From Candidatus Pacearchaeota archaeon (lineage in GTDB: Archaea; Nanobdellota; Nanobdellia; Pacearchaeales; UBA284), in NCBI GenBank assembly GCA_026016245.1, contig CP061211.1, positions 30,001 to 62,000 on the forward strand: DNA of 32,000 nucleotides, read 5' to 3'. Below are positions 2 through 20,156 of this stretch, in pieces (within the stretch, counting starts at the first letter, position 1; each line of letters begins with the position of its first letter). Under the pieces are notes generated by a model that did no database searches, had not been told where the DNA came from, and saw nothing but the letters and a program-made list of their open reading frames with translations. A program made the position numbers and the translations under genes.

Positions 2-1681
2 ACCCAACAAGCAGATTATATTTCAAATGATACTAGCGTTGCTTCTGTTTCAGCACTCGGCTTAGTTACTGGAATTGGAGATGGGACAGGAAAAATAACT
101 GCAGAATACACACATTCTGAGGTCACAAAAGAAGACTCTAGTATTGTTAATGTCAGATATTTTGAAGATGATTATATTAGATATATTAATCTGGCTTTAA
201 ATAAATATGAAATTGAAATAAATGAAGAAACAAGTTATGAAGTTAAGGCTTATTGGTCTAATGGTCTGACAACTGATATAACTTCTGAATCAGATGTTCA
301 GAGTTTAAATCCAAATGTTGCTTCTGTAAATCAAAATACTCATAGAGTTAAGGGAGAGGATGAAGGAATAGCCATCATAAATGCTAGCTATATTCATAAT
401 AATCTTCCTTATGGAGATGAAAAATTTATAATTGTTACTGGAGAAGCAGTTGGAGAATATAATCTTTCAGTTGACACATGTGGAGATACATCTATTCCAC
501 CAGATGGAGATTGTGAAGATTTTATTAATGTGAAAGGTGAAATAACTGTTAATCAAGAATCTTGGGGCATTGCACCACAAGAAAGATTCCCACTTCCTTC
601 AGATAATTATAGAGTTTCTTTTGGTCCTCTTCAGGATTGGTATGAACCTGGGGAGATGTCAGTATTTTTGCCTCCAAATGTTTCTTTGATGGGTATTTAT
701 ACTAAAGAGCCTGTGGAGTATGCTCTAATAATTGTCCAAGCTAAAGATGAACAGACAGGACAATTTATCAATGCTTTAATTAACTTATATCTTGAAGATG
801 ATCTTGTTAATTCTACTATAAATGATGTGAGATATAATTATTCAGAGACATATCCTATTGAATTCACAGCTGAATTTGAAGACCAAAGTGGTTACATTAC
901 ACCATCTAATTTAACAATAACAATTTATGGAAATGGAATTTATTTCTTTACAGTTTATTATGAAAAAGAAGCAGTTGGAGAATGTTTCTGTGAACCAAAG
1001 CATGTTCCTTGTGGTTTTTGTTATGATTTTTATTCTGAATGTGATGGCCCTCCACAAGGACCTGGACAAATAATTCCTTGTTCACCTGGTTGGATATGTA
1101 ATTATGTGACAGGAAAATGTCAACCAACTTCAACCCAAGATGAGTGTCATGATAATGCTACTACTTGTAATATTATCACTGGTTGTTATTGGGATTATCC
1201 AGACATCCCTCCTCCTTATTGTAAACATTGCCAAACAGAAGGTCCTGAAACATGTTCAGGTTATGATAATCAGGGAACTTGTAATTTAGATCCTTGTGTT
1301 GTCAAGAATGTTGGTTGTCCTTCTGGTGCTAGTGACTGTAGATGTGAATGGGAAACTGATGAATGTATTCTTAAATATCAACAACAAACAAATGGAGATT
1401 TTTGTGAGATAACTTTAAGACAGGGGACTTGTGAAGAAGGTTGCCAAGGAAAAATAAATTATAGATGGCAAAATTATACTTGTGATCCTGGTTCATGTTC
1501 AGAACAAGCTTGCGTGGATTTAACCTATCCTCCCCCAGATTATACAAAATCAGAATGTGTGATTTGTCCGACACCTTTTAGAGAGCTTCCATTTTTTTCA
1601 TGGTGGAATATTTTAGCTGTTGTGTCTGTATTGATAGTGTTTTATATATTCATGCTTAGAAAAAAGAGAATTAATTATTAA
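2..1681 (+). CDS. Surface protein, 5'-truncated by the window edge: two Big_2-type Ig-like domains, a beta-rich spacer, a cysteine-rich stalk and a C-terminal TM anchor
   Basis: Frame 2 is open from base 2, so the ORF-track GTG at 530 is not the true start. Translation of 2-529 gives SNDTSVASVSALGLVTGIGDGTGKITAEY and SLNPNVASVNQNTHRVKGEDEGIAIINASY, the Big_2 signature. From CFCEPKHVPCGFC to SECVICP I count 28 Cys. The C-terminus WWNILAVVSVLIVFYIFMLRKKR is a TM helix plus basic stop-transfer. Confidence 0.8.
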   Translation, partial: TQQADYISNDTSVASVSALGLVTGIGDGTGKITAEYTHSEVTKEDSSIVNVRYFEDDYIRYINLALNKYEIEINEETSYEVKAYWSNGLTTDITSESDVQSLNPNVASVNQNTHRVKGEDEGIAIINASYIHNNLPYGDEKFIIVTGEAVGEYNLSVDTCGDTSIPPDGDCEDFINVKGEITVNQESWGIAPQERFPLPSDNYRVSFGPLQDWYEPGEMSVFLPPNVSLMGIYTKEPVEYALIIVQAKDEQTGQFINALINLYLEDDLVNSTINDVRYNYSETYPIEFTAEFEDQSGYITPSNLTITIYGNGIYFFTVYYEKEAVGECFCEPKHVPCGFCYDFYSECDGPPQGPGQIIPCSPGWICNYVTGKCQPTSTQDECHDNATTCNIITGCYWDYPDIPPPYCKHCQTEGPETCSGYDNQGTCNLDPCVVKNVGCPSGASDCRCEWETDECILKYQQQTNGDFCEITLRQGTCEEGCQGKINYRWQNYTCDPGSCSEQACVDLTYPPPDYTKSECVICPTPFRELPFFSWWNILAVVSVLIVFYIFMLRKKRINY

Positions 1682-1711: not shown

Positions 1712-4390
1712 ATGATAAAAAAAGAAGGAGTGATTTTAGTATTAGTATTTTTTATTTTATGTTGTTCTTTTAGTTCTGCTTCTGTTATTCCTGGAAATCC
1801 TTTTTTTAATTTAAGTCAAGGAAGTTTTGGTCCAGGCCAAGTTCTTGAGGGTTATTTTAACTTTTCTTTGGAAAATGAACCTGGTAATATTATGGTTAGC
1901 GGGCAAGTTGCTGCTGAGATGAAAGAGATGAATCTTCTTGATTTTTTACAAGAAGGAGAAGTAGATTTTAATTGTGATCCTAGTGATTGTGATGTTACTT
2001 ACCAGGCATCGATTCCTTCCCAAACAAAGACAGTAGTTCTTAGTGAAGAAGAGAAGTATTTTGGTTTAGTTGCTTTTGGTACTAATCCCCAGATTTTGAA
2101 CTTAAGTTTTTATCTTACTGGACAAAGCACTGCTAATCCTATTTGTGGTGAATCTCCTTTGAAAATTGATTTGCTTGATGATGGCATTATAGATTATGAA
2201 TATAAAGAGCCAAGTGGAGAATGGTGTTCTGATTTAAGACATAGTAGATGTTATGATCCTTCTATTGCTACTGGTGTTTCTGTTTTAACTTCTACTCCTC
2301 TTTGCCAGAAAATTTCTCTGAATAAGACAGGAAGGTTAGAAGTTGCTGCTGAACTTAAAGTGTATAGTGGTGAACCTTGGGATTATGATATAGAATTTAC
2401 TGTTTATGATTTAGGTGGTAGTTTAATTGGAAACTGCAGTGTTGATTATTTTTATGAATTAGAATATAGTTTTGCAAAATGTTTTATAGGTCCTGAATTT
2501 CTAGGAGAGGAATCAACATTCTTTATTGAAGAAGCAGGTGATTATCTTCTTTGTATCAGGAATAAGGGAACAAGTAGTGCAGAATATTGGATTAAAAAAG
2601 AAACTCAAGAAGAGGTTTGTGGTTTTTATGGAGAGCCGCCTTCACAGACTTATAATGAGGATTATTCTATTTATGTTCATGAAGCTAAATTTAATGCTTT
2701 TACTGAGGAAGTTGTTTTTGATGAGAGCATGCATCTTGGTGATGTTCCTTTAATGACTTATGTCCAGAATTATATTAATTCAGAATATGGAGGTAATTGT
2801 ACTGGATTTAGTGGTTGTATTATTCCTATAAAATTTATTTCATCAGCTAGCCAGACTTTGACATTGAGTGATATCAACTTCAAATATCACCCACAAGGCA
2901 CTTCTCCAACTTATAATAATTATTTTTATGATTTGATTGTTGAGTGGCCTAAAATTGATATGGATATACAGACAGTTCCATTCTCTATTCTTAATCTTAG
3001 TGCGCCTGAACAGCCAGGTTTCCAGATGGTTTTAGCTAAGATTGGAATAGCTTCGAGAAGTCTTGGTTTTGATGTTGCAGAAGTCCCAACAATCCAAAGT
3101 GTTAGTCCTCTTATTGTAATTCCAGGAAAGCTAACAGAATTTAGGACTGTTGCTACTGCTCCAGCTGGCAAACAGATTATTCAATATAGATGGGATTTTG
3201 GTGATGGTTCAGGAGAGCAAATGACAGCTGGGCCTAATATAACACATACATACAGCCAGATAAAAACATATATTTTAACTGTCAAGGCTCAAGATACTTC
3301 TGGTTTGGTTGGTTCAAGAACTTTTACTATTACCAGCAATATAACCCGCGAACTTTTGAATACTACAATACAGAATTTAAGAATAAGATTGGATAATTTT
3401 GCTTCTCAGTACAATAATATTGAATATTGGTACAGAGATATGATTGGAGTGAATGTTACAATAATAAGCACAACCCTTGATGTTTTAGAATCTCAATTAG
3501 CTACAGCAACCCAAACACAGCTTCTTGATATTAAAAATGAACTTGATGCTTTGAATGTTCCAATATCTATAAATGATACTTTGGTTTTGAGAGATTCTCC
3601 TTATATTCCAAATTTAAATGAAATAGATCCAAGTTATGTTAGTGATATGACAGGAGAGGATTATGATTCAAATCTCAAAACAGAATATCAGAATGCTGTG
3701 GCTTTATGGCAGCAGGATAATGTTAATTTGAGATTAGGAGGAGAGGCAAAAGCTTTATTTTATGAAGATAGAATAGAAGATAAGATTACAGTTGTTAATA
3801 TAAAAGTTGATCCTCTTGTTGGTATTTCTAATGCTTATGTTATTTTCTCCTTGCCTTATGGTGTTAGTTACAATGATGTCAGATTACTGCATGATGCATA
3901 TGAAGTAAGTGATTTAAATGATGCTATTGGCTTTGTCTATACTGGCTTAAGTGGCTTGGAAACAATTAGTATAACATTGCCAGGCAAGGTTGATTTTTCA
4001 GATATTAATTTTTATATCTCACCTTCTCTTCAGGAAGTACAAGTAGGAGTACAACCTCTGACAGAGCCACCAAAGAAACCACCCTATCTTCTAGCAATAT
4101 TTTTAATAATTGTTATTGCGATAGTTGTCCTTATTATCTTATGGTTTATATGGAAAGGCTCTGGGAAAAGAGAGAAAAAGAAGCTGTTCAAGAATCCTAT
4201 GGATCTTTATCATATTACTAATTTTATTTCTAACAATCAAGCTGCTGGAGTTCCAAAAAACAAGATAATAGAGAGGCTGAAAAAAGCTGGTTGGTCAAAA
4301 AAACAAATAGATCATGCTTTTAAACAAATTGGAAAACAGAAACCAATTTTTACACCTTCAGTGAAAAGAAGACCCACAAGAAGAATTTAA
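1712..4390 (+). CDS. Secreted, membrane-anchored PKD-domain surface protein with many N-glycosylation sequons and a 78-aa basic cytoplasmic tail
   Basis: GAGGTG at 1704-1709 precedes ATG 1712. Sec-type signal MIKKEGVILVLVFFILCCSFSSASV. PKD signature IQYRWDFGDGSGEQMTAGPNITHTYSQIKTYILTVKAQDTSG. At least 12 N-x-S/T sequons by my count. TM YLLAIFLIIVIAIVVLIILWFIW, then a K/R-rich tail containing GVPKNKIIERLKKAGWSKKQIDHAFKQI. Confidence 0.85.
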   Translation: MIKKEGVILVLVFFILCCSFSSASVIPGNPFFNLSQGSFGPGQVLEGYFNFSLENEPGNIMVSGQVAAEMKEMNLLDFLQEGEVDFNCDPSDCDVTYQASIPSQTKTVVLSEEEKYFGLVAFGTNPQILNLSFYLTGQSTANPICGESPLKIDLLDDGIIDYEYKEPSGEWCSDLRHSRCYDPSIATGVSVLTSTPLCQKISLNKTGRLEVAAELKVYSGEPWDYDIEFTVYDLGGSLIGNCSVDYFYELEYSFAKCFIGPEFLGEESTFFIEEAGDYLLCIRNKGTSSAEYWIKKETQEEVCGFYGEPPSQTYNEDYSIYVHEAKFNAFTEEVVFDESMHLGDVPLMTYVQNYINSEYGGNCTGFSGCIIPIKFISSASQTLTLSDINFKYHPQGTSPTYNNYFYDLIVEWPKIDMDIQTVPFSILNLSAPEQPGFQMVLAKIGIASRSLGFDVAEVPTIQSVSPLIVIPGKLTEFRTVATAPAGKQIIQYRWDFGDGSGEQMTAGPNITHTYSQIKTYILTVKAQDTSGLVGSRTFTITSNITRELLNTTIQNLRIRLDNFASQYNNIEYWYRDMIGVNVTIISTTLDVLESQLATATQTQLLDIKNELDALNVPISINDTLVLRDSPYIPNLNEIDPSYVSDMTGEDYDSNLKTEYQNAVALWQQDNVNLRLGGEAKALFYEDRIEDKITVVNIKVDPLVGISNAYVIFSLPYGVSYNDVRLLHDAYEVSDLNDAIGFVYTGLSGLETISITLPGKVDFSDINFYISPSLQEVQVGVQPLTEPPKKPPYLLAIFLIIVIAIVVLIILWFIWKGSGKREKKKLFKNPMDLYHITNFISNNQAAGVPKNKIIERLKKAGWSKKQIDHAFKQIGKQKPIFTPSVKRRPTRRI
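3107..3337 (+). other. PKD domain-coding segment inside the 1712-4390 CDS
   Basis: PLIVIPGKLTEFRTVATAPAGKQIIQYRWDFGDGSGEQMTAGPNITHTYSQIKTYILTVKAQDTSGLVGSRTFTITS carries the canonical WDFGDG...H.Y...G.Y.V.L.V.D pattern. Confidence 0.8.
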
Positions 4391-4395
4391 TTTTA

Positions 4396-6660
4396 TTAAG
4401 AAGGTTTAGGAGCTGGAGGCAAAGGTTTTGGTTTTCTTACTGGTTTTATTGGCATTGGTTTTGGCTTTATAGGTCTGGCTATTGGTTTTGCAGGCATTCT
4501 TACTGGCCTTGCTGGAGCTCTTCCTGGTGGCATTCTTCTTACAGGCCTAGATGGCATCATTCCAGGAAACTCCAATTTGGGTTTGGCTGGTTTTGCTTTC
4601 TTCCTTTTTTTAATGGATAGGAATATTAAAACACCTAATCCTAAGACTAAGAAAATGATGAGAGTTGTTAGCCATGGGAACACACTTGGTTTTTTACATT
4701 TCCCTAAACAACATCTGCTTGTATCAGAAGCTTCAACAATTGTTCCGTCACAAGCAAGGCTAGCATTACAGGCAGTTCCTCCTAAAGACGAACATGAACT
4801 TAAACAGCTTCCATCAACACAACATCTCGTAGCCTCACTTGTCTCATACATTGTTCCAGAACAAATCTGTCCAGCTTCACAAGAAACACCAGGACAGGTT
4901 TTTGGAATACATTTCCCTCCTTGGATACAACAAGTTTGTTGGCCACCAGTATTAGCAGCCTCCACTAAAGTTCCGTCTTTACAATCCTCGTCACTAGCAC
5001 AAATCTCACCACCCATTACAGCGCAGGTTTGAGAACCTGTACAAAAACCTGATTCACAGCAATAATTTGTATCAGAAGCAACAATCCATCTGTCTGAAGG
5101 ACATGATTTTCCTTGACTAGGATCACAAATCTCTCCTCCAAGATCAAAACAAGTATCACTTGCTGTTGTGCAAACCCCTTTACAACAATAAGGAGTGTCA
5201 GCTGATACAATGAATGGAATTATATTACCAAGATTATCCAAACATTTCTGTCCAGAGCCGCAAATCTGGCCACCTATCTCATTAATACACATTGATTTAT
5301 CATAAGGTTTACAACATTTCAATCCTGGCTCACAGATATAAGGAACTTCAGTTTCATTGTCAGAACAAGAACTTTTACAAGAACCATATTTATCTTCACA
5401 TGACTGGGCAATATCACAACATTCACGATCTCCAAAACAAGCATAAGGTTGAGATATGCCACCACTATTACTGCAATTGATAACACAACTATATCCATAT
5501 TGCTCACATTCAGAAAGTAATTCTAGAGTCGGCCAAACTCCAAGAAGAATTAAAGCTGTATCACGAACATTATCGCAAGCTGATCCAGAACATTCCCAGC
5601 TTCCATCTTGTTTTTGTTCTTCTAATAATGTTTCTTTTGTCTTTTCAATATCTCCTGCCATGGCTTGGGTCATTAATACAACAAGAGCAGTATCATAATA
5701 TTTGTTAGAAGAACCTTGTCCAAGCCATAATCCATCAGCTCTTTGTAATGCTATTAGTTCTGAAATAAAACTTTGTTTTTTTGTTATTTCATAAAGGAAA
5801 GGTTGAGGCATATATTGCAGATTTTCATCATAATTTATTACAAGGTAAGGCATAAATGTTTTTGCTGTATTTATTTTTCCTTGCTTCATGAATGCATAAG
5901 CTGTCCATAAACTTGCTTCATAATCACATGATCCAAGAGTTGTGATACAAGAAGAATTCAAACCTATAGAAAGAAGTCCCTGAGGGCCAGCTTCTTCATA
6001 CAAGCCAGGAACATACCAATCATTTTCTTTCTTGAATAAAAAATTAGCTATAACACTTTCATTACAACTGACATTGAAAATTTTATCAGAACATTCTGGA
6101 CTAAGACTTAACCAATAATTTTCAGCTATTGTAAAACAAGATCCTGGATTGCCTCCTAATTTGTCTTCTTTATCAATACTAATTTCATAATCAGTATTAT
6201 CATAGAACAAAAGACAGCGGGCAGGAACATTGTTGGTTGTTAATTGCAAATACCAATCAATTCCAGTAGGCATGGCTGTCTTGTTTAATAGCCATTCATT
6301 TGCTTTTTCTGTGTCTTCTCCTATTGCATCAAGGGCAAGTTTTGCAAGAGCTGTATCTTTTGTTTTACAGTTTGGAGAAGGCCAGCATGTCTCATTTTCA
6401 AAGCTCTTGTCAATCAACTTTATTTTTGATGCTTTGGTTTGTGCAAGACTCATTTCATCTCGTAAAACAAGTAATGAGAAAACATGTTGTTCTATATTGA
6501 GATTTTGCCATCTTCCAATAGCTTTATTTTTTAACCAGAGATAAGCTCTTTTAATTTGTATTTTTTCTTGTTCTTGCTGAGCAGAGATTAAAAAAGAGCA
6601 TAAAAAAAGTATTAGAATAAATACTATAAATAATAGAGCAAAGCCTCTTTTCTTATTCAT
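4396..6660 (-). CDS. Surface protein: signal peptide, prenyltransferase/terpene-cyclase-like a/a-toroid repeat domain, seven tandem six-cysteine modules, TM anchor, Pro/Lys/Arg-rich cytoplasmic tail
   Basis: N-terminus MNKKRGFALLFIVFILILFLCSFLISAQQ. Two Q-x-x-DG-x-W repeats (LQRADGLWL, EQKQDGSWE) and repeated [KYR]DTAL helices (KDTALAKLAL, YDTALVVLM, RDTALILLG) typical of prenyltransferase/squalene-cyclase repeats. 42 Cys in aa 385-655 arranged as 7 modules, each with a CC doublet. TM WLTTLIIFLVLGLGVLIFLSI. Tail KPAKPKLEFPGMMPSRPVRRMPPGRAPARPVRMPAKPIARPIKPKPMPIKPVRKPKPLPPAPKPS. Confidence 0.85.
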   Translation of the reverse strand: MNKKRGFALLFIVFILILFLCSFLISAQQEQEKIQIKRAYLWLKNKAIGRWQNLNIEQHVFSLLVLRDEMSLAQTKASKIKLIDKSFENETCWPSPNCKTKDTALAKLALDAIGEDTEKANEWLLNKTAMPTGIDWYLQLTTNNVPARCLLFYDNTDYEISIDKEDKLGGNPGSCFTIAENYWLSLSPECSDKIFNVSCNESVIANFLFKKENDWYVPGLYEEAGPQGLLSIGLNSSCITTLGSCDYEASLWTAYAFMKQGKINTAKTFMPYLVINYDENLQYMPQPFLYEITKKQSFISELIALQRADGLWLGQGSSNKYYDTALVVLMTQAMAGDIEKTKETLLEEQKQDGSWECSGSACDNVRDTALILLGVWPTLELLSECEQYGYSCVINCSNSGGISQPYACFGDRECCDIAQSCEDKYGSCKSSCSDNETEVPYICEPGLKCCKPYDKSMCINEIGGQICGSGQKCLDNLGNIIPFIVSADTPYCCKGVCTTASDTCFDLGGEICDPSQGKSCPSDRWIVASDTNYCCESGFCTGSQTCAVMGGEICASDEDCKDGTLVEAANTGGQQTCCIQGGKCIPKTCPGVSCEAGQICSGTMYETSEATRCCVDGSCLSSCSSLGGTACNASLACDGTIVEASDTSRCCLGKCKKPSVFPWLTTLIIFLVLGLGVLIFLSIKKRKKAKPAKPKLEFPGMMPSRPVRRMPPGRAPARPVRMPAKPIARPIKPKPMPIKPVRKPKPLPPAPKPS
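4696..5508 (-). repeat. Seven tandem protein-level six-Cys modules (about 35-45 aa each) with an invariant CC doublet
   Basis: Examples: CFDLGGEICDPSQGKSCPSDRWIVASDTNYCCESGFCTGSQT, CAVMGGEICASDEDCKDGTLVEAANTGGQQTCCIQGGKCIPKT, CSSLGGTACNASLACDGTIVEASDTSRCCLGKCKKPS. Recurrent GG-x-I/A-C and [AS]-[DN]-T-x(1-5)-CC-x(3-5)-C. Confidence 0.85.
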
Positions 6661-6705: not shown

Positions 6706-7500
6706 ATGATACTAAGAAATATGGATAGAGATAAAAGAGGACAGGTAACTCTTTTTATTATAATTGCTATTGTTATTGTGGCTGTTGTGATTCTAGCTAT
6801 TGTTCTTGTCCCACAACTTCTTCCTAGAGAAAGAATTCCCCCAACAGTACTTGATCCAGAAGCTTATATTGCTGATTGCGTTAACTTACATTTAGAACCA
6901 TTAGTTGAGGTACTTGCAAGTCAAGGAGGCTATTTGGAAACAGGAAATTGTATTTTTTATGAAGATATCTGCAGGCATTATTTATGTTATACTACTACTC
7001 CTTATATTAATTGCACTAATCAAGAACCTTTACTTAAAGAGCATGTTGAAGAAGAATTAAAAACTAAGCTGCAACAAGAAAATGTGGTTAAAAATTGTAT
7101 TTCTAGTTTTGCTGAAGCTGCAAGAAAACAGAATTGGAATGTTGAAGCATGCTCTGTTCCAAAATTTTCAGTTAATTTGACAGAAGGCAGGATTAATATC
7201 CCTATAGAGTGTGATATAACAATGTCTAAAGGACAGGAAGTTAAAAAATTTGAAGAACTTAATCCTTTTTTAAAATGGCCTTTGTTTGAATTTGTTATAC
7301 TTAGTAAAGAAATTATTAATGAAGAAATAGAAAATTGTGATTTTGATCCCTTAGCTTATATGACTATGCATTATCAGATTGAGATTGAGAAATTTAGAAC
7401 AGGCGATGGAAGTAAGATTTATATACTTCGGGAAAGAGAAACTGGAAAAGAATTTGTATTTGCTGTAAGAAATTGTGTGTTACCAGGAGGGGTATTTTAG
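6706..7500 (+). CDS. Cysteine-rich extracytoplasmic protein with a class III (type IV pilin-like) signal peptide
   Basis: N-terminus M(ILRNM)DRDKRGQVTLFIIIAIVIVAVVILAIVL is a short charged segment, then R-G-Q directly abutting the hydrophobic stretch, as in archaeal prepilin-peptidase substrates. 10 Cys in the mature part. Start could be ATG 6706 or ATG 6721; each has an A/T box about 26 nt upstream. Confidence 0.7.
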   Translation: MILRNMDRDKRGQVTLFIIIAIVIVAVVILAIVLVPQLLPRERIPPTVLDPEAYIADCVNLHLEPLVEVLASQGGYLETGNCIFYEDICRHYLCYTTTPYINCTNQEPLLKEHVEEELKTKLQQENVVKNCISSFAEAARKQNWNVEACSVPKFSVNLTEGRINIPIECDITMSKGQEVKKFEELNPFLKWPLFEFVILSKEIINEEIENCDFDPLAYMTMHYQIEIEKFRTGDGSKIYILRERETGKEFVFAVRNCVLPGGVF

Positions 7501-7501
7501 A

Positions 7502-10500
7502 ATGCCAAACAGGAAAAACAAAGGTGATATGGCAATAGCATTATTCCTTTCATTTTTGGCAGTAATGATGCCAGTGACCTTTACATCATTACAACCAGAA
7601 TTTACAGAAGAAGGAATAAAACAAAATTCTATCATTGAAACTTTCTCAGAAATAGTCTTATTTTTTGATCTAATTCCAAGTGTAGCTGCTTCTGATTATT
7701 TTGGATGCTGTGAAGAAACAAAAAATAAAGCTAAATGTGTTATAACTCTTGAGAATGAATGTAAGGTTAATAAATGGCATAATGGAACAGCTTGTGATAC
7801 TGTATGCCAGATAGGTTGTTGTATAGATAATGAAGGAATGTGTATTAAAAATTCTATAAATACAGATTGTCAACTTGGAACTTTTATTGTTAAGGATCCA
7901 AGTTGTGAACAGAGTCCTTTATGCAAGGAAGGTTGTTGTACAATTGGTTATCAAAAAAGATGGACAACAAATTTAACTTGTGTTAATGTTTATAATGGTG
8001 TTTGGGATAGTGCTGTTCCTGATTGGTTGACTTGTATTAAACAAGCTTATGAAGAACAGCATGGATGTTGTAAAAGTTATGCTGGTTGTGAGTATATTAC
8101 AGGACAAGAATGCCAGGGCAAATCAGGATATTTTTTCTCAAATATGAAGTGCTATGAGAATATTCCTGGCTGCGAGATTTGTCAATTACAGCCTACTGAA
8201 GGAAAATGTATAGAAGGTTTTCCTGATTTATACAAGACAGATAGTTGTGGGAATGTTTATAGTGATGAAATTAAAAAATATTGTACTGGTGGTTTTTGTA
8301 ATCCTGAGACAAATCAATGTGAATCTGGAGATTGTTTTAATATCTACAAAAATTATGTTGGTGGAGAATTTGGGCCTAAAGAATCTTCAGACAAAGCAAA
8401 AAGTGGTGAGGCTTGGTGTGTTTATGATACTCTTAGTGACTTAGGTAATGGAACAGCACCTGTAGGTTCACGACACTGGAGACGTTATTGTTTATATGGG
8501 CAAGAATATAATGAGCCTTGTGCAGATTACAGACAAGAAGTTTGTATGGGTTTTGGAGAAGGAGGGCAAGCAGAATATGCCAACTGTGCTCCAAATGGAT
8601 GGAGACTATGTGCTAATGTTACATCAAAAAATGAATGTAATGAGAATCCTTTCTGTTTCTGGTGGACAGATTTTGGTGAACAACATGAAGACCTAGGTCT
8701 TGGTAGCGGATTGAAAGATGCAATTGATAAAGTAGGTAATGATAAATGGCGTATTTTTGCTGAAGAAAAAATAGAATCTGGAAAAAGTAAAAGAGAGAAA
8801 GGAGACCCACAAATTTGTTTACCTAAAATACCTCCAGGCTATAGTGAACTTAATCAAGAGCTTGGTTGTGTTGGAGCTGGAAGTTCTATGTGTGTTTATG
8901 AAGAAGCTTGGTGGGGTTTAGATACAGAAAATAAAGAATGTCGTGATGATGAATGGCGTATTACATCTGCACACACATGTAGAAGTGTAGGAGATTGTGG
9001 AACTTGGTTTAATTGGGTTGGAGAGCCTATGTCTGGTTTTAGGATCATAGAAGTTGAAGAAGGAGATGTAGAAAGAGAGAAAAAAGAAATAATGATACCA
9101 CAAGCATATACTGATTTTGTTTCAGAACATATTAAAGGAGTAAAGGGAGCTGGTGGCTTAGGCCTCTTGAATATTTTTGCAGCTGCTTTTGTAGTTTGGG
9201 CTGGAGGTTATTTAGGAGTTGCAGTTTTAGATCTAGTTGGTGTAGACGTTTTTTTCAGTGGTGTACCTTGGGCAATGTTTAGTGTCAGTAAAGGATCATT
9301 AACTACAGCAGGTATAGTGGTTGGATGGTCTATTATAGCTACTGGAGTGATCTTAATTTTATGGTCTTTTTGGATTTCACCAGGAGCAAAACAAGGAGCA
9401 ATGCAATCAATTGGTGCTGGCCTTATTTCAGGAGGTGCTGCTGCTTTAGCAGGATTAACTGCTGTTCCTGCTGTACTTGTTGGCATTGTAATTGCTGGAA
9501 TTGCTGCTCTTTTATACTGGTTAGGTTATAGTAAGGAATTTTATTATCAACAATGTAATCCTTCAATGCCTCCTCTTAATGGAAATGACTGTCATCTTTG
9601 TAATGAAGATTCTGAAAGGCCTTGTTCTAAGTATAGATGTGAGAGTCTAGGAGCTGCCTGTTCATATAATGATACTATAACTGTTGGTGGTAAAACATAC
9701 CAGCTTGCAGATTCTGAATGTATAGCAACAATAAATGATGGTGCTCCTCCTTGGATTACTGAAATAGAGGCTTTTGACATGGAAGGAAGGAGTATCTTCA
9801 AAAGAACAGGATTAGGAACAATGCCTACAACCATCAATATTAATATGGGCGGCCAACCTATTCCTGATGGCACGCAACTTGTAATACAAATAAACTTGAA
9901 TGAAAAAGCATTTTGTATGTGGGATATTGAAAGCACAGCCAACATTGGAGAGATGGACTTCCCTTATCAAAGTTCTGTATTGCGGGATGAGCTAAGACAG
10001 CAATTCCTAGTGAAACAGGCTCTGCCACAATATTATGTAAGATGTGCTGATGTTTATGGCAATGCGAACATTGCAGAATACATTTTCAAATTTTCAACTA
10101 CAACAGGACCAGATTTAACACCACCAGTTATTTTAGGTACAGATAGAGATTATAATCCTTATTTTGGATATAGTGTTACTGAGCTTCCTTTATCTATTTA
10201 TATTAGTGAAGATGCTTTTTGTCGTTGGAACCCAGGACAGGACACTGATTATGAATTAATGTCACAAGAAACAGAATGTGAAACAGATATCACACCGACT
10301 GGATGGGAATGTGAAACAACCCTCACTGGCTTGCAGCCAGATATTGCAAATCCTTTCTATATAAGATGTAAAGACAAAAGTCCTCAAGAAAATGTTATGC
10401 CTAGCGGTTACCTTCTTACATTACTTCCTACACCGCCTTTATTAATCACTTCAATTGATCCAACAGATGGTTCTATAATTAAAGGATGCGAAGTTTCTGG

Positions 10501-11005
10501 TGTAGAACTTGAAGTTACAACTGCTGAAGGAGCAGATAATGGAATAGCTACTTGTTATTGGTCTAATGCTGATATTGGCATTGAACAAGGAATGACTAAA
10601 TTTACTGAAACTAATACTGTTATTCATAGACAGAACCTTTCTGCTATGAGCCAGATTGTTTACATCAAATGTCATGATTCTGCTTTAAATATAGCAAATA
10701 ATAGGACAAGCTTTACTGTAATTGTTGATACTTTCCCACCAAAAATAACTCGTCTTTACAAATCTGGTGGAAGTCTTATTTTAAAGACAGATGAGAATGC
10801 TGTTTGTGCATATCACTATAGTGCTGGCAGAAAAATACATAATTGTAATTTTGATCCTAAGGATACTCTCAGAGCAAGAAGGTTTGATACCACAGGAACT
10901 AAAGAACATAGAGTTTATGATGATGGAGAGCCTTGGCATGTAATATGTTATGATGAGTGTGATAATATTGGACAGTGTTTCGTAATATCTTCAATAGAAT
11001 CTTAA
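7502..11005 (+). CDS. Giant (1167 aa) polytopic surface protein: N-terminal anchor/signal, >40-Cys ectodomain with GCC modules, Gly/Ala-rich 4-helix membrane bundle, C-terminal ectodomain with four tandem Ig-like modules
   Basis: ATG 7502 lies 1 nt after the upstream stop, with GGAGGGG at 7487-7493 (preferred over the ORF-track GTG 7475). N-terminus MPNRKNKGDMAIALFLSFLAVMMPV. Modules FGCCEETKNKAKC, IGCCIDNEGMC, EGCCTIGYQ, HGCCKSYAGC. Hydrophobic block LGLLNIFAAAFVVWAGGYLGVAVL / AGIVVGWSIIATGVILILWSFWI / AMQSIGAGLISGGAAALAGLTAV / PAVLVGIVIAGIAALLYWLGY at nt ~9150-9530. Four C-terminal repeats follow. Confidence 0.85.
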   Translation: MPNRKNKGDMAIALFLSFLAVMMPVTFTSLQPEFTEEGIKQNSIIETFSEIVLFFDLIPSVAASDYFGCCEETKNKAKCVITLENECKVNKWHNGTACDTVCQIGCCIDNEGMCIKNSINTDCQLGTFIVKDPSCEQSPLCKEGCCTIGYQKRWTTNLTCVNVYNGVWDSAVPDWLTCIKQAYEEQHGCCKSYAGCEYITGQECQGKSGYFFSNMKCYENIPGCEICQLQPTEGKCIEGFPDLYKTDSCGNVYSDEIKKYCTGGFCNPETNQCESGDCFNIYKNYVGGEFGPKESSDKAKSGEAWCVYDTLSDLGNGTAPVGSRHWRRYCLYGQEYNEPCADYRQEVCMGFGEGGQAEYANCAPNGWRLCANVTSKNECNENPFCFWWTDFGEQHEDLGLGSGLKDAIDKVGNDKWRIFAEEKIESGKSKREKGDPQICLPKIPPGYSELNQELGCVGAGSSMCVYEEAWWGLDTENKECRDDEWRITSAHTCRSVGDCGTWFNWVGEPMSGFRIIEVEEGDVEREKKEIMIPQAYTDFVSEHIKGVKGAGGLGLLNIFAAAFVVWAGGYLGVAVLDLVGVDVFFSGVPWAMFSVSKGSLTTAGIVVGWSIIATGVILILWSFWISPGAKQGAMQSIGAGLISGGAAALAGLTAVPAVLVGIVIAGIAALLYWLGYSKEFYYQQCNPSMPPLNGNDCHLCNEDSERPCSKYRCESLGAACSYNDTITVGGKTYQLADSECIATINDGAPPWITEIEAFDMEGRSIFKRTGLGTMPTTININMGGQPIPDGTQLVIQINLNEKAFCMWDIESTANIGEMDFPYQSSVLRDELRQQFLVKQALPQYYVRCADVYGNANIAEYIFKFSTTTGPDLTPPVILGTDRDYNPYFGYSVTELPLSIYISEDAFCRWNPGQDTDYELMSQETECETDITPTGWECETTLTGLQPDIANPFYIRCKDKSPQENVMPSGYLLTLLPTPPLLITSIDPTDGSIIKGCEVSGVELEVTTAEGADNGIATCYWSNADIGIEQGMTKFTETNTVIHRQNLSAMSQIVYIKCHDSALNIANNRTSFTVIVDTFPPKITRLYKSGGSLILKTDENAVCAYHYSAGRKIHNCNFDPKDTLRARRFDTTGTKEHRVYDDGEPWHVICYDECDNIGQCFVISSIES
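9737..11002 (+). repeat. Four tandem ~92-125-aa beta-sandwich-like modules in the C-terminal ectodomain of the giant protein
   Basis: Each module opens with x-PP-x-I (APPWITEIE, LTPPVILGT, PTPPLLITS, TFPPKITRL). Each carries a paired-Cys signature C-x-[WY] ... [YH]-[VI]-x-C-x-D: AFCMWD...YVRCADVYGN; AFCRWN...YIRCKDKS; ATCYWS...YIKCHDSA; AVCAYH...HVICYDECDN. Confidence 0.75.
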
Positions 11006-11006
11006 A

Positions 11007-11825
11007 ATGAAAATGAAAAAAAGAAAAGCAGGAAAAAAGAAAAATATTTTTGATATTATTGGTATGAGTTTTAGAAAGTGGTGGTATAATTTTATTATTG
11101 TCTTGCCTTTTGTTTTTAATGCTGTTGCTTCTATTATTGGTATTCTTATTTTATTTTTAATCTTTGGTTTGCTTTTTATGGTAATTTTTGGTTTATCTCC
11201 TTTGGGTTTATTAGGAGATTTAGTTCTTTTAGGACAACTAGAAGGAGTAATTCCTGATTTTTCACCAGGAATTCTTATTTATCTTGCTCTTGTTTTCATT
11301 GTGATGATTTTAGTTCTTGAATTAATTAAGGCGTATTTCTATAGTGGTGGGATTGCCATGGCTTCTGAGATAGTTAGAGGAAAGAAAACAAGTTTAAGAG
11401 TTATGGATAAGAATGGATGGAAATTTTTATGGCGTTTTTGGATTATTGAGATTATTATTGCTCTTGGTGTTATTATCTGGTTATTTATTTTCGCACTGCC
11501 TTTTATTTTTACTCAAGACATATCCTTATTATCTATAATGGGTATAAGTGTCATACCTATGATGTTTGTTTATGTATTTTTCATTCTAGTTGAGTATTTT
11601 CTTGTTCTTGAAGATTTAAGTGTGTGGAAATCTTTTGAAAGAGGCATTTCTATAGTAAAAACTAATTATTGGGCAATGCTCGGTTTAGGTGTTTTATTTT
11701 TATTGATGACAGGTCTTGCTAGTTTTATTCCTTGGATTGGTGGTATCGCAAGTTTGATAATTTTTATTCCTTGCCAGACAATTGCTTTTGTTATTTTTGC
11801 TCTTAAGCGTGCATATCGACGGTAA
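11007..11825 (+). CDS. Polytopic integral membrane protein (at least six hydrophobic segments), translationally coupled to the giant protein
   Basis: ATG 11007 is 1 nt after the stop at 11005. Basic N-terminus MKMKKRKAGKKKN, then long hydrophobic segments (IIVLPFVFNAVASIIGILILFLIFGLLFMVIFGL, ILIYLALVFIVMILVLELI, FWIIEIIIALGVIIWLFIFALPFIF, and others). The family is not recognised with confidence. Confidence 0.75.
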   Translation: MKMKKRKAGKKKNIFDIIGMSFRKWWYNFIIVLPFVFNAVASIIGILILFLIFGLLFMVIFGLSPLGLLGDLVLLGQLEGVIPDFSPGILIYLALVFIVMILVLELIKAYFYSGGIAMASEIVRGKKTSLRVMDKNGWKFLWRFWIIEIIIALGVIIWLFIFALPFIFTQDISLLSIMGISVIPMMFVYVFFILVEYFLVLEDLSVWKSFERGISIVKTNYWAMLGLGVLFLLMTGLASFIPWIGGIASLIIFIPCQTIAFVIFALKRAYRR

Positions 11826-11900: not shown

Positions 11901-12542
11901 ATGCCAATAAAAATAATTAAGAATTTTTTCAAAAGAATATTTTATGGCATGTTTGCTACTAAGAAACATGTTAAATTAGGTTTTTATGGGCCTCCTAATA
12001 GTGGTAAGACTACTCTTGCTAACAGACTTTGTAAGGATTGGTTAGGAGAAGAGCTTGGAAAAACAAGCAGAGTTCCTCATGAGACAAGAGAAATACAGAT
12101 AAAGGAGAAAGTTGAGATAGATTTTAATGGAAAAAAGTTGACTTTTAAGCTAGTTGATACTCCTGGTATTGCCACAAGAATAGATTATGAGGATTTCTTG
12201 CATTATGGCATGAAGGTTAGAGAGGCTAAGAAAAGAGCTAAAGAAGCTACAAGAGGTGTTATCGAGGCTATAAAATGGTTAGATGACATGGATGCTGTCA
12301 TTATTGTTCTTGATACAACTAAAAATCCTTACACCCAGGTTAATATTACTATCATAGGAAATCTTGTTGCAAGGAAAATTCCTGTGCTTATAGTAGCTAA
12401 CAAGATAGATTTGAGAGGAGCAAGAGGAAAGATAAAAAAGATAGAGGCTGCATTCCCAGAATATGATGTTGTTGCTATAAGTGCAAAAAAAGGCAAAAAC
12501 ATGGAAGAGTTTTATGAGAATCTCTTTGCTCTTGTAAAATAA
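11901..12542 (+). CDS. Small archaeal GTP-binding protein, first gene of the GTPase/DUF2073/DUF2072 trio (OapA-like)
   Basis: P-loop GPPNSGKTT (G1), DTPG (G3), NKID (G4), SAK (G5). AGGAG at 11887-11891. Followed in operon order by DUF2073- and DUF2072-type genes. Confidence 0.85.
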   Translation: MPIKIIKNFFKRIFYGMFATKKHVKLGFYGPPNSGKTTLANRLCKDWLGEELGKTSRVPHETREIQIKEKVEIDFNGKKLTFKLVDTPGIATRIDYEDFLHYGMKVREAKKRAKEATRGVIEAIKWLDDMDAVIIVLDTTKNPYTQVNITIIGNLVARKIPVLIVANKIDLRGARGKIKKIEAAFPEYDVVAISAKKGKNMEEFYENLFALVK

Positions 12543-12552
12543 GAAGAAAAAA

Positions 12553-12969
12553 ATGGCAAAGAAAAAAATAAAAACAAGGAGAAGCGATAAAGGGATAACA
12601 ATACAATTCATCCCATATTCAGAAATAGCTTATCTCACTAGCTTTAGACGTGTGAAGAAGTTAGTTGATTTAGCTGTCGAGAACAAGATTTTGCTTGTTC
12701 AGGGAAAGCTTGCTCCTGAAGAGGAAGTTGACTTGATTGAGGAAACAATGAAACATATAGTTAAGAGTAAAAAATCAAAGTTTAGAGGAATTGAGTTAGC
12801 TACATTCTCACCGAGATCAAAAGAATTACCTTTTTTTACTTCAATGAAAGAGAAACTTGCAACAAGTTTATTTGGTGATAGAGATGTTATCACAGTTATT
12901 GGTCCTGCTACAATTGTCCGTGAAATTAAAAAAGATCCCACTAAGATACAACTCCTTTTAAGGAAATAA
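12553..12969 (+). CDS. DUF2073-family archaeal protein (OapB-like)
   Basis: ITIQFIPYSEIAYL...ILLVQGKLAPEEEVDLIEETMKHI...FRGIELATF matches my memory of the DUF2073 core (l.peEE..LIe.TM....F.GIE). It lies 10 nt after the GTPase stop. Confidence 0.7.
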   Translation: MAKKKIKTRRSDKGITIQFIPYSEIAYLTSFRRVKKLVDLAVENKILLVQGKLAPEEEVDLIEETMKHIVKSKKSKFRGIELATFSPRSKELPFFTSMKEKLATSLFGDRDVITVIGPATIVREIKKDPTKIQLLLRK

Positions 12970-12987
12970 TAAAAATAATAATTAAAA

Positions 12988-13419
12988 ATGCCTCATCAAT
13001 GTGTTCGCTGCGGAAGAATCTATGATAGTGCTGCTCCTGAAGTTCTAGAAGGCTGTTCTTGCGGTTCTCATTACTTTTTCTTCTTTAAGGATGAAGACTT
13101 GGCTATGCAAAAGGAAACTGAAAAGCTTACTAGAGATGAAAGAGAAGAGATTGTCAAGGATGTTAGTGAAATAGTCGGGCCAGATATAGAGAAGCCAATA
13201 ATCCTTGATTTAGAAAGTATCAGAGTACAGAAACCAGGAAAGTTTGAGATTGATTTGGTTAGAATCTTCAAGAGAAAACCTATTATATACAAGATAGAGG
13301 AAGGAAAGTATATCATAGATCTTGCATCAACTTTCCAGATGAAATTAAAGGAGAAAAAGATTGAAAAGTTAAAAAAGGTTGAAGTTCCAGAACCTAAAGA
13401 ATCTAAAGAAGAGGATTAA
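12988..13419 (+). CDS. DUF2072-family Zn-ribbon protein (OapC-like)
   Basis: MPHQCVRCGRIYDSAAPEVLEGCSCGSHYFFFF is the characteristic MPHxCxxCG...GC.CG..F N-terminal zinc ribbon. It has a K/E-rich C-terminus. Confidence 0.75.
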   Translation: MPHQCVRCGRIYDSAAPEVLEGCSCGSHYFFFFKDEDLAMQKETEKLTRDEREEIVKDVSEIVGPDIEKPIILDLESIRVQKPGKFEIDLVRIFKRKPIIYKIEEGKYIIDLASTFQMKLKEKKIEKLKKVEVPEPKESKEED

Positions 13420-17473: not shown

Positions 17474-18742
17474 ATGAACATCTATATTGAAACTTATGGA
17501 TGTAGTGCAAATCAGAGCGATGGAGAGATTATGAAAGGGCTGTTAAGCAGAAGTTTTTCTATTACTGAAAATGAGAAGTTAGCTAATATAATTATTCTGA
17601 ATACATGTATTGTTAAAGGTCCTACATTAAAGAGAATGGAATCAAGAATCAAACATTTTTCTAGGAAAAGATTGATTGTTAGTGGATGTATGCCTGAAGT
17701 TTTGTCTGAAAGAATAAGGAAACTTGCTCCTAAAGCAAGCATGATTAGTACACATCATGTCAAACAGATTGTTAAAGTTGTTAAGAATATTATTGAGGAT
17801 AAGAAAGTTGAATTAATTGGTAAAAAGAAAGAAGTAAAGTTGTGTATGCCCAAAATTCCAAAGAATAAAATTATAGGAATTACTCAATTAAGCAATGGTT
17901 GTCTAGGAAATTGTGCTTATTGCATTGTAAAAAATGTTAAAGGAAATTTGTTTTCATATCCTCAAGATAAGATTTTGAAAGATATTAAGCAGAATTTAAG
18001 AGCTGGATGCAAGGAAATATGGTTAACAAGCCAGGATAATGCTGCTTATGGTTTAGATAATGGAAAAAATGAACTTCCTATATTATTGAAGAAAATATTA
18101 TTTCTAAAGAATAGGTTTTTTATTCGTTTGGGTATGATGAATCCTTCTACTTTATTGCCTGTAGTTAATGAAATTATTGATTGTTATAAAAATAAGAAGA
18201 TGTTTAAGTTTTTACATCTGCCTGTTCAGAGTGGAAGTGATAAAATTTTGAAATTAATGAATAGAGGCTATAGAGTTAAAGATTTTATTAAGATTGTTGA
18301 AAAATTTAAGAGAGAGATTCCTGACCTGACTTTGAGCACAGATATTATTGTTGGTTTTCCTTCTGAGAGTAAAGAGGATTTTGAAAAAACCTTGGCTTTA
18401 GTGAAAAAAATTAAGCCAGATATAATTAATATTAGTAAGTATTGGCCAATGCCTAGAACTTCTGCTTCTGAGATGAAACAGTTGGATGAGAAGGAGAAAA
18501 AGAAAAGGGCTTTTAGATTAATGAAATTGCATCAGAAAATTGCTCTTGAGAAAAATGAGAAGCTTGTTGGAAAGAGAATCAGGATTTTTGTTGATGCTAA
18601 GGGTTTTGATGATACTTGGCTTGCTAGAACAATGAATTATAAGGTTGTAGTGTTAAAGGGAAAAAAATTACTTGGCAGAGTTGTGGATATTGAAATTAGA
18701 AAAGTAACTAGCCATTATCTTATGGGGGTTTTGTTAGAGTAA
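17474..18742 (+). CDS. Archaeal-type MiaB-like radical-SAM methylthiotransferase (MtaB/CDKAL1-like tRNA t6A methylthiotransferase)
   Basis: N-terminal UPF0004 domain IYIETYGCSANQSDGEIMKGLL. Radical-SAM CxxxCxxC (GCLGNCAYCIV). C-terminal TRAM-like domain (GKRIRIFVD...VVDIEIRKVTSHYLMG). Confidence 0.85.
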   Translation: MNIYIETYGCSANQSDGEIMKGLLSRSFSITENEKLANIIILNTCIVKGPTLKRMESRIKHFSRKRLIVSGCMPEVLSERIRKLAPKASMISTHHVKQIVKVVKNIIEDKKVELIGKKKEVKLCMPKIPKNKIIGITQLSNGCLGNCAYCIVKNVKGNLFSYPQDKILKDIKQNLRAGCKEIWLTSQDNAAYGLDNGKNELPILLKKILFLKNRFFIRLGMMNPSTLLPVVNEIIDCYKNKKMFKFLHLPVQSGSDKILKLMNRGYRVKDFIKIVEKFKREIPDLTLSTDIIVGFPSESKEDFEKTLALVKKIKPDIINISKYWPMPRTSASEMKQLDEKEKKKRAFRLMKLHQKIALEKNEKLVGKRIRIFVDAKGFDDTWLARTMNYKVVVLKGKKLLGRVVDIEIRKVTSHYLMGVLLE

Positions 18743-18752
18743 TTTAGTAATA

Positions 18753-18760
18753 TTTATAAA
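18753..18760 (+). promoter_or_regulatory. TATA box (TTTATAAA) for the GNAT/methyltransferase pair
   Basis: It starts 29 nt upstream of ATG 18782, and no SD is present. Confidence 0.5.
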
Positions 18761-18781
18761 TTTCTTAAGCCTTTTTATTTT

Positions 18782-19429
18782 ATGATAATACAACTTCATA
18801 AAGAAGATTTAAAAAGCGTTATGAAATTAGAAAGAAATTCTTGGATTCCTTTTCTACAAGCAGATGAAAAGACTATTCTAAAAAGATTTGATTTAGGGCA
18901 TATTATGCTTGGAGCACAAGAAGATAGTGATTTGGTTGGAATGATATCTTTTTCATATTCTAATTTTTCTCCAGATGATTATCCAAGTTTTCCAAAAACA
19001 TTTAGAGAATTTTCATCACAACCGATTTTAAAAAATTATAATACAGCATTTTGCTATAACTTAGCAATACTTCCTGACAAGAGGGGATATAGGTATGCCT
19101 CCTTACTAATAAGAGCTGGATGGGACAAAGCAAAAAAGGATGGGTGTATGTATGGTGTAGCAGATGGTAGATGTTCTTCATATAATGGAAGCTCTGAATT
19201 TGAGCAAGAACAGATTAAACAGAATACTGAATTTAAAAAAATAATTGATAGGTACTTAAAAGAAGGAATATTTCCTCAACAGAAAGAATTTTTGAAAGAC
19301 CCTACACTTGCGTTTTATCATAGGGTGACAGGTTGTAAATTCTTATGGTTAATCCCTAACTTTTTGCCAGAAGACAAACCTGCGGGAGGATTAAGGGTAA
19401 TATCCTATAAAAATATTTTAGAAAAATAA
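18782..19429 (+). CDS. Probable GNAT-family N-acetyltransferase
   Basis: AFCYNLAILPDKRGYRYASLLIRAGWDKAKKDG resembles GNAT motif A (beta4-R/Q-x-x-G-x-A/G-helix). TTTATAAA at 18753-18760, 29 nt upstream of the ATG, implies a leaderless mRNA. Confidence 0.5.
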   Translation: MIIQLHKEDLKSVMKLERNSWIPFLQADEKTILKRFDLGHIMLGAQEDSDLVGMISFSYSNFSPDDYPSFPKTFREFSSQPILKNYNTAFCYNLAILPDKRGYRYASLLIRAGWDKAKKDGCMYGVADGRCSSYNGSSEFEQEQIKQNTEFKKIIDRYLKEGIFPQQKEFLKDPTLAFYHRVTGCKFLWLIPNFLPEDKPAGGLRVISYKNILEK

Positions 19430-19430
19430 A

Positions 19431-20156
19431 ATGATTTCATTATCTAGAGAATGGATTTCTGTATCTAAAGCAATATATGGTCAAGAATTTATAGATGAAT
19501 TAGCTGAATTTTTAAGACAACAAAAGGTTAAAATAATTCTTGAATGTGGTTGTGGTGGTGGGCATATTCTACATGGTCTTGTAAACAAAGGATTTTATGG
19601 TTTAGGAATTGATTCAAATAAGGAAATGATTAATCATGCATTAAGAAATTATAAGAATCTAAATATAAAATATAAACAAATGAATTGGTTAAATATAGAT
19701 GAATTAAAAGAAAATTTTGATGCAGTTATATGTCGAGGGAATAGCCTGGTTTTTGTGACTAGCTGGGAAAAGAAAAAACAAGATTTTGATCCAAACGTTG
19801 CAAAAGATTGTCTAGTTAAAAGTATAAATAAATTTTTTGAAAAAATTAGAGATGGTGGTTTACTCTATGTGGATACAATTTCTCAAATAGAAATCAATAA
19901 TAATGGTGGGCCAATTGAATTTAAAACAGAAAAAATACAATTAAAAGGAAAAATAGAATACGATTGGAAGAGGAGAATAAGATATATTTATGGTGGTGGT
20001 AAAGTAAATGGGAAAGAATTTTATGGAAGTTCAACTAGTTATTTGATAACACCGAAAGAACTAGAGGATATCATTAAGACTTTTAATCCCTCCGCTATTT
20101 GGACGCCAGAACTAGTGCATGAAAAAGATTATCATGTAATTTGTGCAAGAAAATAA
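19431..20156 (+). CDS. Class I SAM-dependent methyltransferase
   Basis: Motif I KIILECGCGGGHILHGLV, then an acidic post-I loop GLGIDSNKEMI and DAVICRGNSL (motif II/III region). The start is 1 nt after the upstream stop. Confidence 0.8.
   Translation: MISLSREWISVSKAIYGQEFIDELAEFLRQQKVKIILECGCGGGHILHGLVNKGFYGLGIDSNKEMINHALRNYKNLNIKYKQMNWLNIDELKENFDAVICRGNSLVFVTSWEKKKQDFDPNVAKDCLVKSINKFFEKIRDGGLLYVDTISQIEINNNGGPIEFKTEKIQLKGKIEYDWKRRIRYIYGGGKVNGKEFYGSSTSYLITPKELEDIIKTFNPSAIWTPELVHEKDYHVICARK

Follow-up and report, generated by a model that had tools for sequence, protein, structure and literature searches.

The 32,000-nucleotide window analyzed here (positions 30,001 to 62,000 of contig CP061211.1, assembly GCA_026016245.1, Candidatus Pacearchaeota archaeon; all coordinates below are those of the window) contains a gene on the forward strand (7502..11005, including the stop codon) for a protein of 1167 amino acid residues, which is a member of a large lineage-specific family without Pfam, NCBIfam or PDB coverage. 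From its architecture and gene context, we propose that it is an exported, disulfide-stabilized surface protein that forms part of a tethered head-plus-stalk complex serving either attachment or the structure of the cell envelope. We put the probability of this reading at about 55%.

The protein begins with an export/anchor region (residues 1-63; 7502..7690, forward strand, as are all segments of this gene) made of a basic tip, a hydrophobic helix (residues 10-31), an acidic spacer and the sequence FFDLIPSVAA just before the first GCC triplet. It is followed by an N-terminal ectodomain, termed here the head (residues 64-545; 7691..9136), which has 43 Cys residues, four GCC modules within residues 64-230 and a conserved core at residues ~300-348 with the motif GE(S/A)WCVYD...VGSRHWR.YC...EPC.DYRQ.(I/V)C. 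Next comes a Gly/Ala-rich hydrophobic block (residues 547-678; 9140..9535; 17% Gly, 16% Ala, 13% Val and 12% Leu) with the predicted helices a (557-576), b (600-622), c (629-650) and d (656-675). The remainder, termed the stalk, consists of a membrane-proximal Cys “knot” domain (residues 679-745; 9536..9736), which contains F.C.PW.PP.GG.DC..CN.D...PCSKYRCESLG..C and is the most conserved region of the protein, and of four immunoglobulin (Ig)-like modules (residues 746-868, 869-966, 967-1077 and 1078-1167; 9737..11002), each with one conserved Cys pair (805/848, 907/956, 1018/1057 and 1102/1149, respectively).

The 64 Cys residues fall into two groups, 43 in residues 69-499 and 21 from residue 685 onward, with none in the hydrophobic block. 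There are exactly four GCC triplets (residues 68, 105, 144 and 188), and the Cys cluster CNPSMPPLNGNDCHLCNEDSERPCSKYRCESLGAAC occupies residues 685-720. Nearly all Cys residues of both halves are invariant in a 25-sequence alignment of homologs, with identity down to 24%; the sequence features of the protein go far beyond chance. Disulfide bonds probably form both in the head and in the knot-Ig stalk. The features that an initial annotation of this stretch had listed are all present: the length of 1167 residues, four GCC modules, more than 40 Cys residues in the N-terminal half, the Gly/Ala-rich block, the Cys cluster, four C-terminal modules and the 1-nucleotide spacer to the next gene. The pattern that it gave for these modules, C-x-W...Y-[VI]-x-C-x-D, needs one amendment. 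The four repeats are real and three of them follow it (CMW805...YVRCAD, CRW907...YIRCKD and CYW1018...YIKCHD), whereas the fourth deviates, with C-x-Y and H-V-x-C-x-D in the corresponding places (CAY1102...HVICYD).

We modeled the full-length protein with AlphaFold2 using the 25-sequence alignment (mean predicted local distance difference test score, pLDDT, 73.6). The C-terminal half (residues 680-1167) was modeled as the Cys-knot domain followed by four all-beta modules (pLDDT 76-92), and the N-terminal half as beta-hairpin Cys modules, mostly with pLDDT of 70-88. A long beta-strand (residues 677-689) begins right after helix d, and beta-strands make up most of the modeled C-terminal half, in which neither a long helix nor a heptad region occurs. 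The matches listed by Foldseek for the PDB were only Ig/fibronectin type III (Fn3) arrays (E-values down to 4e-12, probability 1.0, ~460 columns), for example PTP-delta Ig1-Fn1, the GhpA grappling hook and complement MG domains. We assigned these matches to the C-terminal half because of their length and fold. The matches from BFVD were phage Fn3/Ig tail proteins, which are also generic arrays, and no fusion protein was among the listed matches in either database. According to the model, the C-terminal half is thus a tandem array of Ig-like/Fn3-like beta-sandwiches. Four Pfam models matched the C-terminal half of one homolog (P0018), DUF4625 and Y_Y_Y with scores over their respective cut-offs and Big_3_3 and Big_13 with scores under them. 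When the N-terminal half was modeled alone, the result was poorer (pLDDT 59 versus 70-88 over most of the region in the full-length model) and had no Foldseek match in the PDB, the best E-value being 1.2, to FnI-EGF modules. At the sequence level, the whole protein had no match in Pfam-A or NCBIfam at E<=0.1, and none of five sub-regions searched against family models had a meaningful match at E<=10. When PDB sequences were searched with the family profile and with single sequences, nothing convincing appeared beyond marginal matches to influenza B neuraminidase (E ~1e-3 to 8e-3 over ~90 positions, residues ~1004-1093, window ~10511..10780), which we set aside as probably a coincidence of Cys spacing.

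The gene itself appears in good order. A GGAGGGG motif lies 5' of its ATG, which is separated by 1 nucleotide from the stop codon of the upstream gene, and the window is archaeal and low in GC (~32%). The identical protein (100% over all 1167 residues) is present at NCBI as IB618_00185, “MAG: hypothetical protein”, from a 710-kb contig of Candidatus Pacearchaeota archaeon. A word-indexed search identified 28 homologs, most of them covering 91-99% of the query, with identities down to 23%; a second word-index search, seeded with an alignment, added almost nothing. In a profile search against 1.84 billion cluster representatives, 5678 matches were obtained at E<=1e-3 and 2271 at E<=1e-30, and most of the top 150 were full length (~1100-1350 residues). 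Because well over 100 independent cluster representatives share the entire architecture, the gene is intact, and an assembly chimera or a frameshift joining two genes, which the initial annotation had named among the outcomes that would refute it, is ruled out. Scanning species-representative genomes with a single peptide pattern, we found 147 stretches that encode a relative; the best 80 of these, from which the taxonomy was taken, are all labeled Pacearchaeota, Woesearchaeota, Nanoarchaeota or unclassified archaeon. One partial homolog is labeled “Bathyarchaeota”. Its 8.9-kb contig is probably mis-binned, because the pilin-like neighbor encoded on it is 65% identical to that of our window (g264, see below). 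Literature searches found no individual description of this family.

Relatives in which the two halves are separate indicate how the protein is built. In 23 related loci, a gene for the N-terminal half only is followed by a gene for the C-terminal half only. The N-half-only proteins correspond to residues ~50-510 of the 1167-residue protein and have ~43 Cys residues, a cleavable Sec signal and no other transmembrane (TM) segment, which makes them secreted proteins. In the stalk-only proteins, an N-terminal anchor precedes the Gly-rich helices, frequently with a low-complexity linker rich in Thr, Pro and Gly in between, and the knot and Ig modules come last. By this comparison, the protein is a Rosetta-stone fusion in which a head that is secreted and a stalk that is anchored in the membrane, separate proteins elsewhere, form one chain; because the halves are separate genes there and fused here, head and stalk most likely act together. 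In most Woesearchaeota loci the gene order is g264, full-length protein, second g264, head-only gene and stalk-only gene. As a side observation, toxin-antitoxin genes of the HEPN/nucleotidyltransferase type lie between head-only and stalk-only paralogs in two Woesearchaeota-type loci, L002 (14732..15806; NTP_transf_2 and HEPN) and L012 (11752..13013; HEPN and HepT-like).

The initial annotation placed both Cys-rich halves outside the cell on the basis of an even helix count, and comparison across the family leads to the same placement. In at least five members that are otherwise complete, the hydrophobic block is missing (P0022, P0024, P0074, P0140 and, almost entirely, P0025); since some members have no hydrophobic segment between the halves, both halves share one compartment. 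The secreted N-half-only proteins indicate which compartment this is. Composition agrees: both halves are acidic with a Lys plus Arg fraction of 0.07-0.10, matching other exported proteins of the window, while clearly cytoplasmic window proteins have 0.16-0.20 and two proteins of unassigned location (a GH3-family protein and orf456) have 0.11-0.14. Counts of N-glycosylation sequons did not discriminate between exported and cytoplasmic proteins. Short members of the family start with a canonical Sec signal ending in ...VSA directly before CC, at the same site as the first GCC of our protein, and in longer members, including this one, the first GCC is preceded by a TM helix, a spacer and the conserved sequence IPSV(S/A)A. 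No hydrophobic segment follows residue 678, so the protein has no C-terminal TM helix. Both halves almost certainly lie outside the cell.

Apart from an insert in the N-terminal half, the hydrophobic block is the least conserved region. Its mean pairwise identity is 19%, compared with 44% for the knot, 41% for the core of the N-terminal half and 29-37% for the Ig modules; identity across the ectodomains is 29-44% except for the one variable insert (16%). This even conservation argues for a structural machine rather than for a hypervariable adhesin tip. Across the family, the hydrophobic sequence between the halves would make anything from no helix to about six, the most frequent length being 80-120 residues (about four helices); the distribution of its total length is broad and was uninformative as a test for quantized numbers of hairpins. 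In an alignment of 185 mid-regions, two Gly residues are conserved at 90-93%, and helices c and d, the last two, are separated by a Pro/Gly turn (often NP.GW); after helix d come a Lys/Glu-rich stretch and then the V.F.C of the knot. Repeated (G/A/S)xxx(G/A/S) motifs are present in the block of our protein, and no sub-region of the protein gave a hidden Markov model (HMM) match to Gly-zipper Pfam families at E<=10. We infer that the conserved unit of the block is a tight helical hairpin, of which this protein has two, a-b and c-d. Given its low conservation, variable size and dispensability, the block looks like an anchor of Gly-zipper hairpins rather than a conserved pore or fusogen core. In this respect it may be likened to the Gly-zipper hairpin anchors of SlyB/PCP-type lipoproteins, which share runs of (G/A/S)xxx(G/A/S), conserved Gly residues and a Pro/Gly turn between ~20-residue helices. 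Unlike those anchors, the putative hairpins here lie mid-chain in a 1167-residue protein, between two ectodomains and in an archaeal cytoplasmic membrane, and they match no Gly-zipper HMM.

The conserved partner of the gene lies directly upstream, the gene g264 (6706..7500, forward strand; 264 residues, or 259 when started at M6 as at NCBI), whose stop codon lies 1 nucleotide before the ATG of the 1167-residue protein. We surveyed 83 related loci, in which 67 full-length family genes had enough upstream sequence, and a g264-like gene is directly upstream of 59 of the 67. The g264 protein has the N-terminus K-R-G-Q-V-T-L-F-I-I-I, a hydrophobic helix and then an exported domain of ~225 residues with 4 conserved Cys. 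Essentially every one of the ~113-123 homologs examined carries the motif K-[KR]-[GAS]-Q-[VI]-T-[IL]-F-[IV]-I, and in the alignment Q13 is 100% and F17 96% conserved. Archaeal G|Q (EppA-type) prepilin sites are a known form, and the N-terminus of g264 resembles such a class III (type IV prepilin-like) signal. No Pfam domain was found in any of the 293 homologs of g264, and those few with a name are called “hypothetical” or, by JGI, “YceG”. The label “cell division protein YceG involved in septum cleavage” on homologs P0177 and P0193 has no Pfam support and probably reflects their N-terminal TM helix. The initial annotation overlooked g264, which is also joined to the gene by a 1-nucleotide spacer, and singled out the downstream gene instead. 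That gene (11007..11825, forward strand) encodes a 272-residue polytopic membrane protein that matches DUF7847 (PF25231; 35.3 bits against a cut-off of 28.7). Its six hydrophobic segments and its 1-nucleotide spacer, from the stop codon at 11005 to the ATG at 11007, are as had been described, and it is translationally coupled; yet DUF7847 occurs in only 3 of the 83 related loci, and we rejected it as the functional partner. The large protein is not itself a giant pilin, since only 14 of 119 full-length members fit a FlaFind-like class III pattern. Other small genes with pilin-like N-termini also occur near the family: two in L002, downstream of the stalk-only gene (18238..19736), encode proteins of ~167 and ~332 residues (KKAQETVGMSFGMIFSII and KKAIEMGFNWIFAIIAG) without a Pfam match, and a family of small proteins of ~175 residues recurs in 16 loci.

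We therefore propose the following arrangement as a working model. The N-terminal signal/anchor would route the protein through Sec, and the 480-residue Cys-rich head would fold outside the cell. The chain would then dip into the membrane and return by way of the two Gly-zipper-like hairpins, a-b and c-d. Such a mid-chain hairpin anchor would pin the Cys knot directly to the outer face of the membrane, with the four Ig-like modules projecting from the knot. Head and stalk, covalently tethered in this protein, would work as one complex, which would also include the pilin-like protein encoded by g264. The role of the complex would be structural or adhesive, in the architecture of the cell envelope or in attachment to a partner cell.

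Several points weigh against this model. The topology was derived by comparing family members. By a simple position-independent hydrophobicity count, using Hessa-scale values, the block has three clear segments (558-576, 605-623 and 657-675) and a marginal one (629-650), so the four helices of the initial annotation are drawn in the AlphaFold2 model but are counted only in part by hydrophobicity. In that model, the helices of the block mostly have pLDDT below 60. The presumed cytoplasmic loops of the block carry no positive-inside signal, and a few relatives (for example, P0019) have a single hydrophobic segment of ~25-30 residues, which fits a hairpin poorly. Searches of g264 against Pfam and NCBIfam, including the curated pilin models, gave no match, so that g264 is pilin-like by motif only (the nearest NCBIfam score, TIGR04205 at the N-terminus of one homolog, had E=0.066, far below cut-off). 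No genes for a pilus ATPase, a platform protein or a prepilin peptidase were seen in the 32-kb window or in the loci and flanks examined. Finally, we found no experimental or annotated relative of the protein, and its function is deduced from architecture and gene context.

Some of these points would be explained by other readings, which have to be weighed against the rest of the data. The three clear hydrophobic segments are consistent with an odd number of spanning helices, which would leave the knot and Ig modules in the cytoplasm and make the protein a TM receptor or signaling scaffold, and many relatives have Lys-rich stretches after the last helix. We consider this very improbable: members without a TM segment between the halves place both in one compartment, each Ig-like module of the C-terminal half has its invariant Cys pair, this half resembles the window's exported proteins in being acidic and low in Lys and Arg, the stretch behind the last helix mixes Lys with Glu and is not net basic, and no recognizable cytoplasmic signaling domain is present. 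The initial annotation preferred a pore, fusogen or receptor scaffold built on the four-helix bundle, and one may imagine the Gly/Ala-rich helices forming a channel or inserting into a partner membrane while the ectodomains dock the two cells. Glycine-zipper motifs typically occur in TM helices that pack tightly or oligomerize, and the block has both the repeated motifs and the two Gly residues at 90-93%; class I fusion peptides have a similar Gly/Ala-rich composition, and the absence of a positive-inside signal would also suit such a device. As in class I viral fusion glycoproteins and HAP2/fusexins, an internal hydrophobic segment rich in Gly and Ala comes after a Cys-rich outer domain, and the split forms resemble a receptor-binding and a membrane subunit. 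The dependence of DPANN cells on host contact (PMC8204110) would provide a context. The family data speak against it, however, and this reading seems unlikely to be correct. The block is the poorly conserved part (19% identity), its helix content varies from none to about six, and at least five otherwise intact members do without it. In addition, class I fusion proteins have heptad-repeat helices behind the fusion peptide, class II proteins have a three-domain fold, and both have a C-terminal TM anchor, whereas here the block is followed by a beta-strand, the C-terminal half is mostly beta-strand without long helices or a heptad region, and a C-terminal TM segment is lacking. Descent from a virus and homology to fusogens were both rejected: IMG/VR viral contigs yielded no relatives, and the listed matches in PDB and BFVD were generic Ig/Fn3 arrays, with no fusion protein among them.

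An S-layer-type lattice is a possible reading that we hold to be rather improbable. Head and stalk would then be two envelope components, comparable to the SlaA canopy and SlaB stalk of Sulfolobales and fused in our protein, and would cover the cell as tiles instead of binding a partner. Archaeal S-layers are typically built from Ig-like beta-sandwich arrays, and such arrays are present here; the secreted-plus-anchored two-gene arrangement is found in 23 loci, the family is widespread and evenly conserved in its lineage, and its chromosomal position adjoining replication genes is stable. S-layer proteins are usually Cys-poor, whereas this one has 64 Cys residues; no similarity to S-layer families was found in Pfam, NCBIfam or PDB; and genomes carry two or three sets of paralogs, each with a pilin-like gene of its own, which would be unusual for an S-layer. 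The way in which the protein works may nevertheless be closest to such a two-component surface assembly, and it also bears a resemblance to a module of a minor pilin and a large adhesin. As in SlaA/SlaB, adjacent genes encode a secreted and a membrane-anchored beta-sandwich subunit (in the split paralogs), both extracellular, with Ig-like beta-sandwich modules that would project from the membrane. Unlike SlaA/SlaB, the protein has no sequence or fold match to S-layer families, is extremely Cys-rich, has its two subunits fused, would be anchored by hairpins that precede the beta-domains instead of by a C-terminal helix, and belongs to a family that is nearly always paired with a pilin-like gene (59/67). 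In the modules of minor pilins with PilY1/PilC, small pilin-like genes likewise adjoin a non-pilin surface protein of ~1100-1300 residues. Our protein differs in having no beta-propeller or vWA domain and in carrying its own membrane helices, and its loci differ in that no pilus ATPase, platform or peptidase gene was seen in those examined and in a partner whose likeness to pilins lies in its motif. Since homology is absent and the defining machinery was not found in the loci examined, it is a member of neither system. The tethered head-plus-stalk surface complex thus remains the reading that we favor.

The wider neighborhood is rich in genes for surface proteins. On the opposite strand, a divergent gene (4396..6660) encodes a 754-residue surface protein with 53 Cys residues, five ~40-residue repeats of the form C..GG..C......C...CC....C, a C-terminal TM helix and a Pro/Lys/Arg-rich tail; it has weak, below-cut-off matches to squalene-hopene-cyclase/prenyltransferase-like (terpene-cyclase-like) repeats, and its homologs lie on the opposite strand near the pair of g264 and the large gene in 22-23 loci. 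An open frame of at least 560 codons that runs off the left edge of the window (2..1681, forward strand), and of which the list of open reading frames has just the part 530..1681, encodes Big_2-like repeats and, at the C-terminal end, a Cys-rich region and a TM helix, and its C-terminus is 28% identical to the product (~1158 residues) of a gene at the same position in L001. Between these two genes, an 892-residue PKD-domain protein (1712..4390, forward strand) is syntenic in the closest Pacearchaeota loci (L001, L003, L004 and L005). Together with its neighbors it forms ~11.8 kb of consecutive genes for surface or membrane proteins. In Pacearchaeota, the gene pair is thus embedded in a run of surface-protein genes (Big_2-like, PKD and the 754-residue Cys-rich protein) that adjoins OapABC; in Woesearchaeota, it adjoins primase and PCNA. 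The origin-associated genes for an OapA-like GTPase, OapB and OapC (11901..13419, forward strand), which are followed by PAC2 and ArgRS, suggest that the locus lies near the replication origin. The window also carries a TrmB regulator and class I tRNA synthetases, as well as a family 2 glycosyltransferase (GT2) fused to a GtrA/DPMS membrane domain, followed by PMT_2, which is dolichyl-phosphate-mannose protein mannosyltransferase-like (27484..29897, forward strand). The products of these last two genes could glycosylate the surface proteins of the window.

Pacearchaeota and Woesearchaeota are tiny symbiotic archaea, abundant, uncultured and genome-reduced, and we know of no account of how they attach to and exploit other cells. 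Castelle et al. (2021, PMC8204110) reported 51 families that form a module specific to these two groups and that mostly lack an assigned function; the paper also notes that, by prediction, many families particular to DPANN lineages are bound to the membrane or located outside the cell. The family described here fits this class. In a Pacearchaeota metaproteome, “hypothetical proteins” were detected (PMC11537232). We rate the protein as a cell-surface Ig-array protein whose unusual points are its mid-chain anchor and its conserved pilin-like partner; by itself, the family reveals no new mechanism. It is a long shot that g264, head and stalk make up an apparatus for cell-cell contact in Pacearchaeota and Woesearchaeota, with the hairpins oligomerizing into a conduit or inserting into the membrane of a partner. 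If that were true, these archaea would have a new kind of intercellular bridge or uptake device, restricted to this DPANN lineage and without relation to the fusogens, secretion systems and pili known so far. With thousands of sequence clusters, a restriction to its lineage, conservation over the full length and a pilin-like gene at its side, the family would be useful for structural work, for raising antibodies for cryo-electron tomography or fluorescence in situ hybridization, and for the definition of a new family. Its fused and split forms predict a three-part surface complex of head, stalk and pilin-like subunit, which makes it a good candidate for surface machinery of the Pacearchaeota and Woesearchaeota.

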